This document shows, piece by piece, positions 14,519 to 22,816 of a DNA stretch of 64,000 nt. Source of the stretch: Escherichia coli (GTDB lineage Bacteria; Pseudomonadota; Gammaproteobacteria; Enterobacterales; Enterobacteriaceae); assembly GCF_003334405.1 (NCBI RefSeq), contig NZ_QOWM01000005.1; one strand, 5' to 3'. The notes under the pieces are model-generated. The model was not told the origin of the DNA, did no database searches, and saw only the letters and a list, made by a program, of their open reading frames with translations. The translations under genes and the position numbers were made by a program. How positions within the stretch are numbered: position 1 is the stretch's first letter; each line of letters starts with the position of its first letter.

Positions 14519-14736
14519 CGTATTTCCTTTCTTAGGGTATAAAAGTAGCGGGCAGCATATCAGCCACACTTCTTTGGGTAAAACTTTGTCGCAGGAATGA
14601 TGACAAATCCCGGGGAAAAAGAAACAATAGCAATATCCCGTATGAATATAATAAAGGCGGGTTTACCACGGACATCATAGCGTTAGCTTATTCATAGGCT
14701 ATGATTGAGGAACAAGACGCGGAGCAGGAGGAAACC

Positions 14737-15375
14737 ATGCCCGGGCGCTTTGAACTAAAACCAACCCTGGAGAAAGTCTGGCACGCGCCGGACAATTTTC
14801 GCTTCATGGACCCGCTGCCGCCGATGCATCGTCGGGGGATCATTATTGCCGCCATTATATTGGTGGTCGGATTTCTGCTTCCATCTGATGATACGCCCAA
14901 CGCGCCGGTGGTGACGCGTGAAGCGCAGTTAGATATTCAGTCGCAATCACAACCGCCGACAGAAGAACAGCTGCGGGCGCAATTAGTCACACCACAAAAT
15001 GATCCTGATCAGGTGGCTCCGGTCGCTCCAGAACCTATACAGGAAGGCCAGCCAGAAGAACAGCCGCAAACTACCCAAACACAACCATTCCAGCCAGATA
15101 GCGGAATTGATAATCAATGGCGCTCTTACCGTGTCGAACCCGGTAAAACGATGGCGCAGCTGTTCCGCGACCACGGACTGCCCGCTACCGATGTCTATGC
15201 AATGGCGCAGGTAGAAGGCGCGGGTAAGCCGCTGAGTAATTTGCAAAACGGGCAAATGGTGAAAATCCGCCAGAACGCCAGCGGCGTGGTGACGGGCTTA
15301 ACCATTGATACGGGGAATAATCAACAGGTCCTGTTCACCCGCCAGCCGGATGGCAGTTTTATTCGTGCGCGGTAG
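14737..15375 (+). CDS. ytfB: OapA/LysM-domain cell-division protein YtfB
   Basis: Track ORF from 14701; ATG 14737 preceded by AGGAGG gives [20 protein letters not shown], 212 aa as recalled; Pro/Gln-rich linker. Confidence 0.9.
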
Positions 15376-16006
15376 ATGAAGGGTCAACCAAAAGCCAGCT
15401 AAGGATTGTCTCTTTGATGACCTTACGTCTGGCTTCCAGTGCCTGGGGGGAAACCATACTGATATGATAAACCAGGCCAAGCGTATGCTGGTTGATCAAA
15501 TAATATCCGCCAAGCGCAGCAATATTAATATTCACCTGCAATGGGTCGATATCTGGCTTAAAAATATTGTGTTTCTTCCCTTCATCCAATAAGGATTCCA
15601 TTAACTGCAAGTGCGCATGGTTAATTTCTAAGAGACGCTGTGATTTTGCATAATGCACACCTTTACTTTGATTTTCACTATGCACAATTTTTAAAAACCA
15701 GGGATTAGCAATATAATAATCCCATGTAAAATCAATAATTTTCTCAATGGCTTTTTGTGGCGGAAGATCTGAGAAATCAAGGGCCTTTTCTTTTTGTCGA
15801 ATATCGTTCCAGGTATATTCCAGTACTTCAATAAATAAATTTTCTTTATTACCAAAGTGATGATAAACCGTCTGTTTACTACACCCCGCAGCCTTAACAA
15901 TATTATCGACCCTGGCCCCTTCATAACCATATTCGGCAAATTCATTAACCGCGCATAACAGCAGCTTTTCCTTCAGGCTCTGTACGTTGCTGGTATCAAG
16001 ATACAT
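15359..16006 (-). CDS. TetR/AcrR-family transcriptional regulator, divergent from the accessory operon
   Basis: N-terminal HTH region ([44 protein letters not shown]) typical of TetR_N; ATG at 16006 with GGGGAAG upstream preferred over the track's TTG at 16030; gene is visibly AT-rich; 3' end overlaps ytfB convergently. Confidence 0.8.
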
Positions 16007-16128
16007 AACGCTTCCCCACGACCTCTTCAAGATAACTATCTTAACCCGATTAATTAGAAGCTCCAGTAAAAAGGATAAAAACTTGTACTTTCATCAAGTT
16101 ATCAAATGTCCTGTGATCACTATCGCAT

Positions 16129-16172
16129 ATCAACCAACCAGATGGTTGATCTTTCTTGCGGCACGTCGCAAG
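16129..16172. promoter_or_regulatory. Candidate operator palindromes in the TetR / operon divergent intergenic region
   Basis: ATCAACCA-N6-TGGTTGAT (16129-16150, 8-bp arms) and CTTGCG-N6-CGCAAG (16155-16172), 47-90 bp upstream of the first operon ATG. Confidence 0.4.
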
Positions 16173-16218
16173 CTAATTGTCACTTAGAAAACAATATTCA
16201 AAAAAAGAGAGCTATTGT

Positions 16219-17010
16219 ATGAAATCCACTCGTCCTGTTGCCGTGATTACCGGAGCCGCTCGTGGTATTGGAAAGGGCTGTGCGCTGGAGCTTGCTCGTG
16301 GCGGATTTAACCTGCTGATTAACGATCTTCCCGATGCCGACAGCGTAGAAAAACTGCATATCACACAACAAGAATGTATAGCTGAAGGCGTGGAAGTGAT
16401 TTGCTTCCCTGCCGATGTCGGCGATCTCTCCTTGCATGAAGAGATGCTCGACGCGGCGCAAAACCTGTGGGGACGTCTGGACTGCCTGCTCAACAACGCA
16501 GGCATTTCAGTGAAAAAACGCGGTGACCTCCTCGACCTCGAACCAGACAGCTTCGATCAAAACATTGCCATTAACACCCGCGCGCCGTTCTTCCTTGCTC
16601 AGGCATTCAGTAAGCGTTTACTGGCACAGCCGAAACCGGAAGCGGAACTGCCGCACCGCTCGATTATTTTCGTCAGTTCCATCAACGCCATCATGCTGGC
16701 GATGAATCGCGGCGAATACACCATTGCCAAAACCGCCGTTTCTGCCGCTGCTCGTCTATTTGCAGCTCGCCTTTGTAATGAACAAATTGGCGTTTATGAA
16801 GTGCGCCCAGGTCTCATCAAAACTGATATGACTATTCCGGCAACGGCTTATTACGACGAACTGATTGCCAAAGGTCTGGTGCCGTGGGGACGTTGGGGTT
16901 ATCCGGCTGATATTGCTTCCACTGTCCGCGCGATGGCGGAAGGTAAACTGATTTACACCTGTGGTCAGGCGGTCGCCATCGACGGCGGCTTAAGTATGCC
17001 GCGCTTCTGA
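16219..17010 (+). CDS. Short-chain dehydrogenase/reductase (SDR) family oxidoreductase
   Basis: Glycine-rich cofactor motif VAVITGAARGIGKG near the N-terminus and catalytic YTIAK (YxxxK); ATG 16219 chosen, track ORF begins upstream at 16177. Confidence 0.8.
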   Translation: MKSTRPVAVITGAARGIGKGCALELARGGFNLLINDLPDADSVEKLHITQQECIAEGVEVICFPADVGDLSLHEEMLDAAQNLWGRLDCLLNNAGISVKKRGDLLDLEPDSFDQNIAINTRAPFFLAQAFSKRLLAQPKPEAELPHRSIIFVSSINAIMLAMNRGEYTIAKTAVSAAARLFAARLCNEQIGVYEVRPGLIKTDMTIPATAYYDELIAKGLVPWGRWGYPADIASTVRAMAEGKLIYTCGQAVAIDGGLSMPRF

Positions 17011-17019
17011 GGCTGAATC

Positions 17020-17862
17020 ATGAGAGATCTGTTACAACGCCCGGATTTATTCAGTATCAATACCGCAACACTGGGCTATAAAACGCCGCTACCCGCCATT
17101 ATTGATGCCTGCGCCGCGCGTGGTATTGGCGCGATTGCTCCCTGGCGCAGGGAGTTGCAAGGTGAAGATCTCCAGCAAATCGCCCACCAGCTTGCCGCCA
17201 GTAACATGAGCGTTTCCGGTTTGTGCCGTAGCACTTACTACACCGCGCCGACACTGGCGGAACGCAAACTGGCGATTGATGATAACCGCCGGGCGCTGGA
17301 CGACGCAGCGGTGCTTAACGCCGCCTGTTATATGCAGGTGGTTGGCGGTCTGCCAACGGGCACTAAAGATCTATATGAAGCGCGAGAACAAGTGAAACAA
17401 GGGATTCGCCAGTTGCTGCCACATTCGAAAGATGTCGGCGTGCCAATTGCGCTGGAGCCACTGCACCCGATGACAGCTGCCGATCGCTCTTGCCTGTGCA
17501 CGTTACGCCAGGCGCTGGACTGGTGTGATGAACTCGATCCCGATGGTGAGTTTGGCCTCGGCGTGGCGGTGGATGTTTATCACGTCTGGTGGGATCCGGA
17601 TCTCGCCAGTCAGATCCTGCGTGCCGGAAAACGCATCCTCGCGTTTCATGTTTCCGACTGGTTAGTGCCGACCACTGATCTGGTCAATGACCGTGGTATG
17701 CCGGGAGATGGCGTCATCAATATTCCGTCAATTCGTCGGCTGGTTGAAAACGCCGGATTTAATGGCGCTATTGAACTGGAAATATTCTCGCCGTACTGGT
17801 GGCAAAAAGATATTAACAGCACGCTGGATATTAGCGTCGATCGCATCGCGCATTATTGTTAA
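17020..17862 (+). CDS. Sugar-phosphate isomerase/epimerase, xylose-isomerase-like TIM-barrel family
   Basis: 280-aa ORF with ATG 17020 10 nt after the SDR stop, GAGG upstream; IALEPLHP-type motif; family assignment from recalled signatures, not a search. Confidence 0.65.
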   Translation: MRDLLQRPDLFSINTATLGYKTPLPAIIDACAARGIGAIAPWRRELQGEDLQQIAHQLAASNMSVSGLCRSTYYTAPTLAERKLAIDDNRRALDDAAVLNAACYMQVVGGLPTGTKDLYEAREQVKQGIRQLLPHSKDVGVPIALEPLHPMTAADRSCLCTLRQALDWCDELDPDGEFGLGVAVDVYHVWWDPDLASQILRAGKRILAFHVSDWLVPTTDLVNDRGMPGDGVINIPSIRRLVENAGFNGAIELEIFSPYWWQKDINSTLDISVDRIAHYC

Positions 17863-17871
17863 GGAATGATC

Positions 17872-18648
17872 ATGAGTGACCAACCCGTTCTGTTCAGCAG
17901 AGCGGCGGCTTCCTGCCGCCTGACATTGAACCGTGAAGATAAATGTCATGCTATTAACGAAGAGATGATCGAATCTCTCGACCATTATTTAAATGAAATT
18001 GAAAACGACACCACATTACGATTAGTCGAATTAACGGCAACCGGCGATAAATTCTTTTGTGCGGGCGGCGATATTAAATCGTGGTCGGCCTATTCGCCAT
18101 TAGATATGGGCAGAAAATGGATTAAACGCGGTAATGACGTTTTTAATCGCCTGCGAAACTTACCCCAATTAACCGTTGCGAATCTCAACGGTCATACCAT
18201 CGGCGGTGGTATTGAACTGGCCTTGTGCTGCGATATTCGTATTGCCCGCCCCGGCGCGAAATTCTCTAACCCGGAAGTGATGCTCGGCATGGTGCCTGGC
18301 TGGATGGGCATTGAACGTGTGCTTAATCAGGTTGGTCCGGTGGTCGGTCGCCAGATGCTGATGCTGGGTAAACGCCTGACGGCGCAGGAAGCCCAGGCGG
18401 CGAATTTAATTGATGAAGTGGTAGAAAAAGAACAGGTGGAAAGCTGGATGGCGAACCAGTTAGCGCAGCTGGAAAAATGCGGCCCGGTGGCACTGGCGCA
18501 TATTAAGCAACTGATTCTGGCACTGGAAAATAAACATGCCGATTACCCGCACCAGCTACTGGCCGGATTAATGTCTGCCACTCAGGATTGCCAGCAGGCG
18601 ACGCGCGCCTTTGCCGAAAAAAGTAGCGTGAGCTTCCATAATCAATAA
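17872..18648 (+). CDS. Enoyl-CoA hydratase/isomerase (crotonase fold)
   Basis: Crotonase signatures FCAGGDI and GHTIGGGIELALCCDIRIA; ATG 17872 has AAGGA 6 nt upstream (track start 17866 is 2 codons earlier). Confidence 0.8.
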   Translation: MSDQPVLFSRAAASCRLTLNREDKCHAINEEMIESLDHYLNEIENDTTLRLVELTATGDKFFCAGGDIKSWSAYSPLDMGRKWIKRGNDVFNRLRNLPQLTVANLNGHTIGGGIELALCCDIRIARPGAKFSNPEVMLGMVPGWMGIERVLNQVGPVVGRQMLMLGKRLTAQEAQAANLIDEVVEKEQVESWMANQLAQLEKCGPVALAHIKQLILALENKHADYPHQLLAGLMSATQDCQQATRAFAEKSSVSFHNQ

Positions 18649-18657
18649 GGAAATTGT

Positions 18658-20199
18658 ATGCGTAAGATAACAACCGCCGAGGCACTGGCGGCGCAAATTC
18701 AGGACGGTGCGACTATTGCTATTAGCGGTAACGGCGGCGGTATGGTGGAAGCCGACCATATTCTGGCTGCTATTGAAGCGCGTTTCCTGCAAACCGGACA
18801 CCCTCGCGACCTGACGCTAATCCACTCGCTGGGTATTGGCGATCGCGACTGCAAAGGCACTAATCGTTTTGCGCACGCAGAGATGCTCAAACGCATTATT
18901 GCCGGGCACTTTACCTGGTCGCCCAAAATGCAGGCGCTGGTAAAAAATAACACGATTGAAGCCTACTGCTTTCCTGGTGGCGTGATTCAGGCACTGCTAC
19001 GGGAGATCGGCGCCGGACGTCCGGGGCTTTTTACCCACGTTGGGCTGGGATCGTTTGTTGATCCACGCAATGGCGGCGGTAAGTCGAATGAATGCACTAC
19101 CGACGAGCTGGTAGAACTGATTGAAATCGACGGTGAAACCAAACTTCGTTATCGCCCTTTCAAAGTGGATTACGCGATTTTGCGTGGCACTTATGCCGAT
19201 CCTCGAGGCAACGTCAGCCTTGAAGAAGAAGCGATTGATATGGATAGCTATTCCATGGCGCTGGCAGCACACAACAGCGGCGGCAAAGTGTTCGTACAGG
19301 TACGCGATGTGCTGGAAGCTGGCGCGATTGAACCACGCCGGGTCAAATTACCGGGCATTCTGGTTGATGGCATCGTTGAACACCGCGAACAACCACAAAC
19401 CTATCTTGGCGGTTACGACCTGACCATCAGCGGCCAACATCGCCGTCTGAGTTCTAACGACGCTATTGAACTGGTTAGTCATCCGGTACGTCGCCTGATT
19501 GCCCGTCGGGCAGCACGCGAACTGGTAGCTGGCGCTTCAACCAACTTTGGCTTTGGTATTCCCGGCGGCATTCCAGGAGTAGCGCTGCGCGAAGGCGTTC
19601 CTTACCAAAGTTTATGGCTGAGCGTCGAGCAAGGCGTACATAACGGCATGATGCTGGATGATGCGTTTTTCGGCTGCGCCCGCAACGCCGATGCCATTAT
19701 TCCATCACTCGATCAATTTGAGTTCTACAGTGGCGGAGGGATCGATATCACCTTCCTCGGCATGGGAGAGATGGATCAGTACGGTAACGTCAACGTCTCC
19801 CATCTCAATGGCAATCTGATTGGCCCCGGCGGATTTCTCGAAATTGCGCAAAATGCCCGTAAAGTGGTGTTCTGCGGCACGTTCGACGCTAAAGGCAGCA
19901 AGATCGATATAACACCAGATGGCTTGCATATCGCCCAGTCAGGTCAAATCCCTAAACTGGTTACCAAGGTGGAAAAAATCACTTTTAGCGCCGCCTACGC
20001 ACAGCAAAGTGGTCAGGAAGTGTTGTATATCACTGAACGCGCAGTATTCCAGTTAACGGCAGAAGGCGTTGAATTAATTGAAATCGCGCCGGGTGTGGAG
20101 ATTGAGCGCGACATTCTGCCGTATATGGCTTTCCGTCCAATTATCAAGCACCCACGCCTGATGGAAAGTAGCCTGTTTACGCCGATGGAGGATGCATGA
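18658..20199 (+). CDS. Family-I CoA-transferase, fused alpha/beta, YdiF-like
   Basis: 513 aa; segments GSFVDPRNGGGK, ITERAVF and IEIAPGV closely resemble recalled E. coli YdiF; AAGGA upstream of ATG 18658. Confidence 0.8.
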   Translation: MRKITTAEALAAQIQDGATIAISGNGGGMVEADHILAAIEARFLQTGHPRDLTLIHSLGIGDRDCKGTNRFAHAEMLKRIIAGHFTWSPKMQALVKNNTIEAYCFPGGVIQALLREIGAGRPGLFTHVGLGSFVDPRNGGGKSNECTTDELVELIEIDGETKLRYRPFKVDYAILRGTYADPRGNVSLEEEAIDMDSYSMALAAHNSGGKVFVQVRDVLEAGAIEPRRVKLPGILVDGIVEHREQPQTYLGGYDLTISGQHRRLSSNDAIELVSHPVRRLIARRAARELVAGASTNFGFGIPGGIPGVALREGVPYQSLWLSVEQGVHNGMMLDDAFFGCARNADAIIPSLDQFEFYSGGGIDITFLGMGEMDQYGNVNVSHLNGNLIGPGGFLEIAQNARKVVFCGTFDAKGSKIDITPDGLHIAQSGQIPKLVTKVEKITFSAAYAQQSGQEVLYITERAVFQLTAEGVELIEIAPGVEIERDILPYMAFRPIIKHPRLMESSLFTPMEDA

Positions 20200-22277
20200 G
20201 TCAGCTTGATGACACCATCCTTGATGCGCTGACGCACGTTACTTTCCCAAAGGGTTTTGCACAGGCAGAGCCCGCATGGGTTGTCACGGTAGACGGTGTT
20301 GATTACCCACTCTGGCAAACAGATGCCCTGGTAGTCGGCAGTGGTGCAGCCGGGCTGCGTGCAGCTGTGGAACTTAAACGCCGCCAGCAAAATGTGCTGA
20401 TCGCCACCGCCGGGTTATATATGGGGACGTCGGCATGTTCTGGTTCCGATAAACAGACACTGTTTACCGCCGCTACCGCGGGCAACGGCGACAACTTCAC
20501 CAAACTGGCAGAGGCACTGGCGAGCGGTGGGGCGATGGATCACGACACCGCTTATGTCGAAGCGGTAGGTTCTCTGCACACTCTTGGCGGGTTGCAATAT
20601 CTTGGTCTGGAATTACCGGAAGATCGCTATGGCGCGATTCTTCGTTATCAAACCGACCATGACGAAGCCGGGCGTGCAACCTCGTGTGGGCCGCGTACCT
20701 CAAGGTTAATGGTGAAAGTGCTGTTGGAAGAAGTACAGCGCCTCGCCATTCCAGTGTTGACCAGTGCAACAGTGATTAAACTGCTGCATCAGCGTGACGA
20801 AAACGGCGAAGACCGTGTTGCGGGGGCAATCCTCGCGACCGGTCATCGCGCCCATAACCCTTGGGGGCTGGCAATTGTGACTGCGCCCAATGTGGTACTG
20901 GCAACAGGAGGGCCTGGCGAGCTTTATCGCGACAGTGTGTACCCACACAAATGTTTTGGCTCGCTGGGGCTGGCGCTGGAGGAAGGCCTGACGCTAACCA
21001 ATCTGACCGAAAGCCAGTTTGGTATAGGCACGCCGCGTAGCACGTTTCCGTGGAATTTATCCGGCACCTATGTACAGGTGATCCCGTATATCTATTCCGT
21101 GGATGCTGAGGGTAACGAGTATAACTTCCTCGCGGATTACTATCGCACCACCCAGGAGCTGGCTTCAAACATTTTCCGTAAAGGCTATCAGTGGCCGTTC
21201 CACGCCACTCGGGTGATGGATTTTGGCTCCAGCTTGTTAGATATGGCAGTAGCGCAAGAGCAGCAATCAGGGCGTCAGGTATTTATGGATTTCAATCGCA
21301 ATCCTGAAGCGGTGCCGGGTGACCTGCCGTTCTCATTAGATCGACTGGACGACGACGTTCGCGCGTATCTGGAAAATAACGACGCTCTGGCACCATCGCC
21401 CATCGAACGGCTGCAACGAATGAATCCGCTGTCTATCTCGCTGTATAAGATGCACGGTTACGATCTCACCACACAGCCTTTGCAGTTTGCCATGAATAAT
21501 CAGCATATGAATGGCGGCATTGAAGTGGATATCTGGGGACAAACCTCCCTGCCCGGCTGTTTCGCCGTGGGGGAAGTTGCTGGCACACACGGCGTCACTC
21601 GCCCTGGTGGTGCAGCATTGAATGCCGGGCAGGTTTTTGCTGTTCGTCTGGCACGTTTTATTGGTTGCACGCAAAAGCGGAATATTGATGGAGATATAGC
21701 ACAGCTGGTAGCTCCTACACTGGCTTCTATAAGAGAGATCATTACTCAGGCGCACGATAACGGGACCGGGATGCCGTTGTCGGTTGTGAGAGAAAAAATT
21801 CAGGCACGAATGTCTGACCATGCGGGATTTATTTGCCATGCCGATAAAGTCCGACGCGCCACTCGCGATGCCCTGCTATTGAGCGAATTTGTCCAACGGC
21901 ATGGATTGGCTATCAAACATGTGGGTGAAGTTGCCGAGCTGTTTATGTGGCGGCATATGGCACTGACTTCTGCCGCCGTATTAACGCAATTAACGCATTA
22001 TATTGACGCAGGTGGTGGTAGTCGGGGAGCACGTATTATTCTCGACAGGGATGGAAATTCTATTCCGCAAACACGAAATGGTTTTTGTGATGCCTGGCGC
22101 TTTCGTTCAGAGCGTACTGAGGATAAAAAAGATAAACTACTTATTCATTATTGCAACGGTATCTTTCACGTCAGAGAAACACCTGTTCGTGAGTTTCCTA
22201 TTATCCGAGGTATTTGGTTTGAAAAAAACTGGCCTGGTTTTCTTAATGGGACAATTTACCAGCCACAGGATGAATGA
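20196..22277 (+). CDS. FAD-binding flavoprotein of the fumarate-reductase/succinate-dehydrogenase/L-aspartate-oxidase superfamily
   Basis: 693 aa; N-terminal dinucleotide fold VVGSGAAGLRAA, mid-region LATGGPGE and C-terminal HGVTRPGGAALNAGQVFAVRLA typical of FAD_binding_2 proteins; ATG 20196 overlaps the upstream stop (ATGA). Confidence 0.78.
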   Translation: MSQLDDTILDALTHVTFPKGFAQAEPAWVVTVDGVDYPLWQTDALVVGSGAAGLRAAVELKRRQQNVLIATAGLYMGTSACSGSDKQTLFTAATAGNGDNFTKLAEALASGGAMDHDTAYVEAVGSLHTLGGLQYLGLELPEDRYGAILRYQTDHDEAGRATSCGPRTSRLMVKVLLEEVQRLAIPVLTSATVIKLLHQRDENGEDRVAGAILATGHRAHNPWGLAIVTAPNVVLATGGPGELYRDSVYPHKCFGSLGLALEEGLTLTNLTESQFGIGTPRSTFPWNLSGTYVQVIPYIYSVDAEGNEYNFLADYYRTTQELASNIFRKGYQWPFHATRVMDFGSSLLDMAVAQEQQSGRQVFMDFNRNPEAVPGDLPFSLDRLDDDVRAYLENNDALAPSPIERLQRMNPLSISLYKMHGYDLTTQPLQFAMNNQHMNGGIEVDIWGQTSLPGCFAVGEVAGTHGVTRPGGAALNAGQVFAVRLARFIGCTQKRNIDGDIAQLVAPTLASIREIITQAHDNGTGMPLSVVREKIQARMSDHAGFICHADKVRRATRDALLLSEFVQRHGLAIKHVGEVAELFMWRHMALTSAAVLTQLTHYIDAGGGSRGARIILDRDGNSIPQTRNGFCDAWRFRSERTEDKKDKLLIHYCNGIFHVRETPVREFPIIRGIWFEKNWPGFLNGTIYQPQDE

Positions 22278-22297
22278 TATTGCAAAGGTTAATCACT

Positions 22298-22774
22298 ATG
22301 CGAAATATAATTAGATCTATTAATGCTCTGCTTGCAGCATTGAACATTACCATTTTGGCGATCATCGTGGCATGTGTGACGTGGCAGGTGGCTGCACGAT
22401 TTATATTTACTAGTCCCAGTATTTTTACAGATGAACTCAGCCGTTTGCTCTTTATTTGTCTTGGACTTTTTGGTGGGGCATACACCGCAGGGCAAAACCG
22501 GCATCTGGCGATTGACCTGCTACCTATGATGCTGAAAGGAAAAGCCCGACGTCATTTATTTTTGTGTATTCAGATTATCGTTATTATCTTCGCAACCATC
22601 ATTATGGTATATGGTGGTGGGCTATTAACGATGGATACATTCGATTCAGGTCAGACCTCGCCCGCTTTAGGCTGGCAAATGGGATATATCTATATGAGCA
22701 TCCCGATTAGTGGTGTACTTATTATTATATACACCATAGATATGGTTTTAACCGAACTTAAACAACCACTCTAA
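22298..22774 (+). CDS. TRAP transporter small permease (DctQ-like)
   Basis: ~160-aa hydrophobic protein with about four predicted TM segments immediately upstream of the large permease; ATG 22298 (AAGG 9 nt upstream) preferred, alternative ATG 22274 overlaps the upstream stop. Confidence 0.75.
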   Translation: MRNIIRSINALLAALNITILAIIVACVTWQVAARFIFTSPSIFTDELSRLLFICLGLFGGAYTAGQNRHLAIDLLPMMLKGKARRHLFLCIQIIVIIFATIIMVYGGGLLTMDTFDSGQTSPALGWQMGYIYMSIPISGVLIIIYTIDMVLTELKQPL

Positions 22775-22816
22775 AGATAACAAACAACAACCAACCATAG
22801 TAGGAATGGAGAAATT

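Follow-up and report, generated by a model that had tools for sequence, protein, structure and literature searches.

Among the inverted repeats in the 212-bp region between ytfA and a divergently transcribed eight-gene operon, we found that one 22-bp palindrome (dyad 1) very probably serves as the operator of the TetR-family regulator YtfA, placed inside the CRP-site promoter of the operon and used for repression. The assignment of dyad 1 as the cognate YtfA operator is predicted from sequence comparison and is well supported by its conservation in orthologous loci and by its co-occurrence with the regulator family. The preliminary description of this region had proposed two adjacent palindromes as a candidate TetR operator. 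For dyad 1, which is invariant in its core, accompanies the regulator family and overlaps the predicted −35 hexamer, this proposal stands, whereas for the second palindrome (dyad 2) it does not. The CRP site in the same promoter is already published, and the YtfA operator is the addition; in the literature searched, there appears to be no description of this operator or of its conservation across Proteobacteria. The result is a specific operator and promoter model for a strain-variable TetR-family regulator.

Genomic setting of ytfA and the divergent operon

The stretch of DNA analysed here (64 kb, referred to as the window) belongs to the E. coli chromosome, and its positions 15300–17100 are 100% identical to ATCC 8739, ML35, VR50, and others. 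The gene starts proposed earlier, an ATG at 16006 on the minus strand for the TetR gene and an ATG at 16219 on the plus strand for the SDR gene, agree with the RefSeq annotation of the identical E. coli sequence, and the 212-bp region is the gap between these two divergent transcription units. The gene name ytfA is taken from PMC6790063 and PMC4287617, and the accession of the protein is WP_001299246.1. The first five operon products are an SDR “3-ketoacyl-ACP reductase”, an AP_endonuc_2 TIM-barrel protein, an enoyl-CoA hydratase (crotonase), a family-I CoA-transferase, and a 693-aa FAD-dependent oxidoreductase, and the last three genes encode the small permease, the large permease, and the binding protein of a TRAP transporter. 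The coordinates of all features are collected in Table 1.

Table 1. Genes and sequence features in and around the ytfA–operon intergenic region (window coordinates)
Feature	Position	Strand	Basis or remark
ytfA, TetR/AcrR-family regulator, 215 aa, Pfam TetR_N + TetR_C_29	15359..16006	-	RefSeq annotation, precomputed Pfam domains
Predicted ytfA −10, TAAGAT	16038..16043	-	TATGAT in most orthologues
CRP site, TGTGATCACTATCGCA	16112..16127		One base upstream of dyad 1; centre 16119.5, ~−61.5 from the predicted start
Dyad 1, ATCAACCAACCAGATGGTTGAT, predicted YtfA operator	16129..16150		Perfect 8-N6-8 inverted repeat, 22 bp
Inner register of dyad 1, ACCAACCA-GA-TGGTTGAT, 18-bp form	16133..16150		Match to family consensus 15/16
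Predicted operon −35, TTGATC	16146..16151	+	Inside the right arm of dyad 1
Dyad 2, CTTGCG-N6-CGCAAG	16155..16172		Spans promoter spacer and −10; 4 bp after dyad 1
Predicted operon −10, CAAGCT	16169..16174	+	17-bp spacing from the −35; CATnnT in other genera
Predicted operon transcription start	16181 (within ~2 nt)	+	Inferred from the −10 position
Eight-gene operon	16219..25142	+	ORFs, RefSeq annotation, NCBIfam

Together, ytfA and the operon form an accessory island that lies between ytfB and rplI, and both are missing from K-12. Of 5426 complete E. coli genomes, 3140 (~58%) contain at least 80% of the test stretch, and the operon, which combines a CoA-dependent pathway with a TRAP transporter, is also spread over many Salmonella and other enterobacteria. 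All orthologous loci keep the regulator gene divergent from the SDR, TIM-barrel, crotonase, and CoA-transferase genes, and the order of the genes beside it is the same throughout the enterobacterial ones.

Our literature searches returned no paper on a target, operator, or ligand of YtfA, with ytfA appearing only in lists as a variable TetR-family gene, and no characterisation of the eight-gene cluster; a search combining the arm sequence of dyad 1 with “TetR” gave only noise. YtfA did not reach the cut-off of any NCBIfam equivalog, and among solved structures the uncharacterised TetR protein 3npi is nearest to it. At E < 1e-10, the PDB contains no relative of the 693-aa FAD enzyme, and the TIM-barrel protein is best matched by “sugar isomerase” entries that are themselves uncharacterised, so that the structure comparisons of these three proteins gave no clue to the substrate of the operon.

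An invariant palindrome in orthologous intergenic regions

The palindrome ATCAACCA-N6-TGGTTGAT is located where the preliminary description had placed it. A second register nested within it, CAACCA-N2-TGGTTG (16135–16148), had been missed. To estimate the chance level of such repeats, the 212-bp region was shuffled with its dinucleotide composition preserved. Dyads with arms of 8 bp and no more than 12 bp between them turned up in 3.5–4% of the shuffles, so dyad 1 is modestly unlikely to have arisen by chance. The region as a whole is rich in dyads, with five distinct ones as against 0.59 expected.

To this we add the evidence from orthologous loci, which were gathered by a genome-collection scan and by exact-protein look-ups (Salmonella and Citrobacter by the latter). 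They represent E. coli E69, E. whittamii, E. albertii, a divergent Escherichia, Klebsiella spallanzanii, Salmonella, Citrobacter, Leminorella, Lelliottia, Entomohabitans, and four metagenomic lineages. The 14 intergenic sequences were aligned; the orthologues are phylogenetically related and hence not independent, and their regulators share 57–99% identity. The mean column identity of the alignment is 60%, and the DNA flanking dyad 1 has diverged. Conservation of the palindromes in orthologous intergenic regions had been named at the outset as a check on the operator proposal, and for dyad 1 the core proved invariant in all 14. The longest invariant block of the alignment lies within dyad 1 and consists of AACCAAC (16132–16138) and GGTTG (16144–16148) together with T16150, which gives an invariant core of 17 nt, AACCAAC-N5-GGTTG.

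The pattern of variation within dyad 1 is informative about its nature. Across the alignment, 91% of the cells are paired, four pairs never vary, and there are no compensatory changes. The changes that occur are one-sided and abolish pairing, and they fall on outer arm positions, with the “loop” and the inner arms invariant. Such one-sided, pairing-breaking variation is the signature of a DNA sequence bound by a protein and not of a hairpin.

A 40-mer around dyad 1 was detectable in 3134 E. coli genomes, in exactly one place in each. A repetitive extragenic element of the REP or IRU type was considered for dyad 1 and ruled out, since all 3134 genomes have just this one copy. No further match to dyad 1 at up to one mismatch was found in the 64-kb window, and no extra operator copies in the operon or elsewhere; matches with two mismatches occur at the chance rate (9 as against 5.0 expected).

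One metagenomic orthologue with 57% identity (L057) carries two operator copies, at 3825–3844 and 3874–3890 of its locus, 46 bp apart. One copy lies over the −35 as in E. coli; the other is placed downstream of the −10 and ahead of the ribosome-binding site. In one metagenomic group, a third register (N4) was found besides the nested N6 and N2 registers. Taken together, these registers are compatible with more than one symmetry or stoichiometry of the site.

The candidate operator motif accompanies the regulator family in alphaproteobacteria

The exact core of dyad 1 was also found beside homologous TetR genes (34–42% identity) in alphaproteobacteria, for example in Belnapia, Sneathiella, Tistrella, Ferrovibrio, Oceanibaculum, and Phreatobacter. 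With up to three mismatches allowed, the motif adjoins this gene in every one of the 19 alphaproteobacterial loci, most of which have one motif site on each side of it. Away from these flanking positions, only 4 sites with up to two mismatches occur in ~155 kb of the same loci, and the loci of more distant TetR proteins have a site in only 1 of 20 cases. The alphaproteobacterial neighbours, an SsuA/NMT1-type ABC transporter and an amidase, differ from the enterobacterial targets. Since the same motif stands beside different neighbours, it tracks the regulator family and not the operon; in other words, the same DNA motif serves another regulon. In the loci numbered L007 to L026, the operators that bracket the TetR genes lie at ~3850–3930 and 4610–4810.

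From the 34 best sites flanking the alphaproteobacterial homologues, we built a family consensus, ATCAACCA-N2-TGGTTGAT. Sites beside the TetR gene score 11–16 of 16 against it; in control windows of 360 bp, the null best score did not exceed 13 and reached 12 or more in only 5 of 360. The window sequence scores 15/16 with the 18-bp N2 model and 16/16 with the N6 model, and the enterobacterial operator thus looks like the family site with four extra bases in its centre (ATCA-ACCA-ACCA). The N6 form is present at some alphaproteobacterial sites as well.

The proteins are conserved in a corresponding manner. In its DNA-reading head, YtfA shares 57% identity with the alphaproteobacterial proteins, as compared to 31% in the remaining part, the ligand domain, and the 10 residues of the recognition helix are identical. 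A conserved head with an identical recognition helix explains the shared motif. Because the motif holds out to the alphaproteobacteria, it can be used for the prediction of regulons across this TetR subfamily.

Predicted promoter of the operon and the CRP site

All −35/−10 pairs of the region were scored across the orthologues with approximate sigma-70 hexamer weights. On this scale, the proposed pair comes first in the window and, in each of the 14 orthologues, takes a rank between 1 and 5 among ~950 candidates, and no other candidate is conserved in position; a strict sigma-70 scan of 15900–16350 returned no promoter. Positions 2 and 6 of the −10 hexamer (A16170 and T16174) are invariant in the 14 orthologues, and the hexamer overlaps the right arm of dyad 2. 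Relative to the predicted start, dyad 1 spans ~−52 to −31.

Directly upstream of dyad 1 lies a CRP-type site that the preliminary description had missed. Its sequence, TGTGA-TCACTA-TCGCA, agrees with TGTGA-N6-TCACA at 9 of the 10 core positions, and the orthologues show little or no variation at the TGA and TC.CA positions. A distance of −61.5 is the classical class I position of CRP, and the placing of the site there depends on the predicted start. On this basis the operon promoter is predicted to be of the CRP class I type, with CRP occupancy in vivo known from PMC4287617. For a ChIP-seq peak between “ETEC-specific/ytfA” in ETEC H10407, that paper gives exactly this 16-mer as the CRP site, and we located the same sequence in the intergenic region of that strain (NC_017633.1). 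The peak coordinates in PMC4287617 are ~190 bp lower than the site sequences in NC_017633.1 at both sites checked (L058 and L059), which looks like a systematic offset; with coordinates shifted by ~190 bp, the centre of the CRP peak falls on the 16-mer.

This module tracks the operon. In Entomohabitans, an insertion of ~215 bp parts ytfA from the module of CRP site, operator, −35, and −10, and the module stays beside the operon; the insertion (~3660–3990 of the Entomohabitans teleogrylli locus, L006) is GC-rich. The predicted −10 of ytfA itself is recognisable by an invariant T, A, and final T (A16038, T16042, and A16043 on the plus strand). As it lies ~90 bp from the operator, autoregulation of ytfA by occlusion is not expected in enterobacteria, and the enterobacterial operator would control the operon and not ytfA.

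Proposed mechanism

The predicted promoter would consist, in order, of CRP at ~−61.5, the operator, a weak −35 (TTGATC) in the right arm of the operator, and a weak −10 (CAAGCT). When the inducer is missing, a YtfA dimer, or two in view of the nested registers, would sit on the operator and cover the −35 as well as the DNA between CRP and RNA polymerase, so that CRP could not recruit the polymerase and the operon would be off. YtfA would be released by a ligand, probably an organic acid imported by the TRAP transporter or a CoA-thioester intermediate. Transcription of the operon would then require the inducer and cAMP-CRP together. The mechanism is conventional, a TetR-family operator within a CRP-site promoter, and its value is the handle that it offers on a regulator and a widespread operon. 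Placed in a ytfA-positive strain, a reporter on the operon promoter would offer a direct way to screen for the inducer and hence for the substrate of the pathway.

A more specific version of this scheme, which taken as a whole we regard as unlikely and put forward tentatively, concerns the origin of the enterobacterial site. The 22-bp site might have been derived from the 18-bp family site by duplication of the 4 bp ACCA, which would have created two overlapping half-site registers with an offset of 4 bp. This would allow a pair of YtfA dimers to occupy separate faces of the helix in a QacR-like manner; being 1 bp from CRP, their main effect might be anti-activation of CRP and not plain occlusion of the −35. 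If this version were true, it would provide a DNA code for the TetR_C_29-type subfamily from alpha- to gammaproteobacteria, as well as a handle on the substrate of an operon present in ~58% of E. coli genomes.

It is also conceivable, if improbable, that YtfA works from dyad 1 as an activator, or as a co-activator with CRP, at a class II-like position. Counted from the predicted start at 16181, the centre of the operator (16139.5) lies at −41.5, a position also used by class II activators, and the weakness of both core hexamers is usual for activator-dependent promoters. However, most TetR-family regulators are repressors, and a −35 hexamer within an operator arm is the usual geometry of occlusion, the start from which −41.5 is counted being itself a prediction. 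The alphaproteobacterial sites, moreover, lie ~10–50 bp upstream of start codons (in L017, the site at 3895–3915 is followed by the ATG at 3926), and the second operator copy of the metagenomic orthologue L057, downstream of the −10, occupies a position able only to repress. We accordingly prefer repression by YtfA to activation.

Comparison with known regulatory systems

Dyad 1 is an inverted repeat within the 15–30 bp usual for TetR operators, and in 14 loci it lies beside the regulator gene in the shared intergenic region. The arrangement resembles TetR/tetO and AcrR/acrAB, in which the regulator gene is likewise divergent from its target and a palindromic operator in the shared intergenic region overlaps the core promoter, a predicted one in the case of YtfA. 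Unlike in those systems, the YtfA operator lies on the promoter of the target only, and a CRP site is added. The predicted promoter also has much in common with CRP class I promoters under a local repressor, of the lac type or with anti-activation of the CytR type: CRP is at ~−61.5, the core hexamers are weak, and a specific repressor is predicted between CRP and RNA polymerase or over the polymerase site. It differs from these in that YtfA is a TetR-family protein and would cover the predicted −35 rather than the start.

QacR and some other members of the TetR family bind as a pair of dimers. The YtfA operator is long, as is QacR IR1, and its half-sites ATCAACCA and ACCAACCA are offset by 4 bp; the alphaproteobacterial 18-bp form, in contrast to QacR, fits a single dimer.

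In the layout of its DNA, dyad 1 also resembles the box TTGACCAnnTGGTCAA of RutR, the TetR-family pyrimidine regulator of E. coli (PMC2475637). Like this box, the N2 register of dyad 1 is a 7-N2-7 palindrome with the centre ACCA-nn-TGGT (PMC2475637), and the N-terminal domain of YtfA is detectably similar to RutR (PDB 3loc, E = 3e-7). The C-terminal domain of YtfA, set against RutR, is Pfam TetR_C_29. The outer half-site of YtfA is TCAACCA, unlike the TTGACCA of RutR, and the enterobacterial YtfA operator has four extra central bases in its 22-bp 8-N6-8 form. YtfA was also considered as a RutR orthologue, which was rejected with 37.8 bits on the NCBIfam RutR model as against a cut-off of 368.

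These similarities raise the question of whether dyad 1 might be bound by another regulator, by cross-recognition by RutR of E. coli or by a global factor, which we consider very improbable. By inspection, the N2 register at 16134–16149 shares 9 of 14 positions with the RutR consensus, among them the key positions 4 and 13, and ChIP targets of RutR did include sites with 9/14 matches (PMC2475637). Nevertheless, with a match of 9/14 to TTGACCAnnTGGTCAA and with YtfA far below the RutR cut-off, dyad 1 does not count as a RutR box, and its invariant CAACC and GGTTG are unlike TTGACC, the half-site of RutR. In alphaproteobacteria the motif stays with the ytfA-family gene beside unrelated targets, and it is nearly absent beside distant TetR proteins, which argues for YtfA itself, and a single copy of dyad 1 per E. 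coli genome is unlike the motif of a global regulator.

The second palindrome and structured-RNA readings

Dyad 2 is present 4 bp from dyad 1, as the preliminary description had reported. That description suggested that the two dyads side by side could reflect cooperative binding or a second regulator, and neither suggestion is supported by the comparison of orthologues. With 6-bp-arm dyads in 44% of the shuffles, dyad 2 alone is unremarkable. Across the orthologues, 35.7% of its cells are paired and no pair is free of variation; compensatory changes occur in 2 of 6 pairs, which is no more than in shuffled controls. Its left arm, which lies in the variable promoter spacer, is CTTTCC in E. coli E69 and E. 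whittamii, is changed further in E. albertii, and is CTTGCA in ETEC H10407, whose intergenic region is otherwise identical to that of the window. The right arm is conserved (GCA...T) because it overlaps the −10 hexamer. As judged from these alignments, dyad 2 is a lineage-specific chance palindrome over the −10, with no predicted part in regulation.

A composite cooperative operator formed by dyads 1 and 2, or a second regulator bound to dyad 2, is accordingly given hardly any credence. The proximity of the dyads is unusual, as an 8-bp dyad with a 6-bp dyad at most 10 bp away arose in only 0.26% of the shuffles, and the pair folds as RNA with a z-score of −2.5. But dyad 2 is broken within E. 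coli itself, the 40-mer around it is detectable in 1559 genomes as compared to 3134 for dyad 1, that is, in only half of the island-bearing genomes, and its conserved positions are accounted for by the −10. A second factor does exist in this promoter; it is CRP, however, and it is found upstream of dyad 1 instead of at dyad 2.

The weakest alternative, to which we give practically no weight, is that dyad 1 acts as a nucleic-acid hairpin (an intrinsic terminator, an attenuator, or a leader RNA structure), as a terminator-like scan that flagged 16129–16150 followed by CTTTCTT and an RNA fold of −16.5 kcal/mol (z-score −2.5) might suggest; the CTTTCTT tail is weak, no gene end upstream on the plus strand needs a terminator here, and a terminator or structured leader was rejected on the ground of the zero compensatory pairs and of a location upstream of the conserved −10, which puts dyad 1 outside the operon transcript.

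Other features of the region

Two more dyads with 6-bp arms had been missed in the intergenic region, at 16029–16042 and 16080–16100. The former is a perfect AAGATA-N2-TATCTT that overlaps the predicted ytfA −10. It is not conserved in the orthologues, which have ATGACTATCATAAC there, and only the −10 positions are conserved. The latter is AACTTG-N9-CAAGTT in the window and AACCTG...CAGGTT in E69, where both arms are changed and complementarity is kept. The blocks TTTCAT and GTTATCAA beside it are conserved among enterobacteria, and this dyad may be the site of another factor or part of the ytfA promoter.

Several observations were made at the borders of the island and within the operon. The genes ytfB (14701–15375, plus strand) and ytfA run towards each other and share 17 bp at their 3′ ends (15359–15375). 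The CoA-transferase of the operon is FadX-like, and its ORF is intact in the window (18658–20199); the gene is annotated as frameshifted in NZ_CP022959.1, a silver-adapted derivative of ATCC 8739 (17359–18899 of locus L001). Between the gene of the TRAP binding protein and rplI, a GC-rich hairpin with a 12-bp stem and with A and T runs beside it occupies 25206–25232 and looks like a bidirectional terminator.
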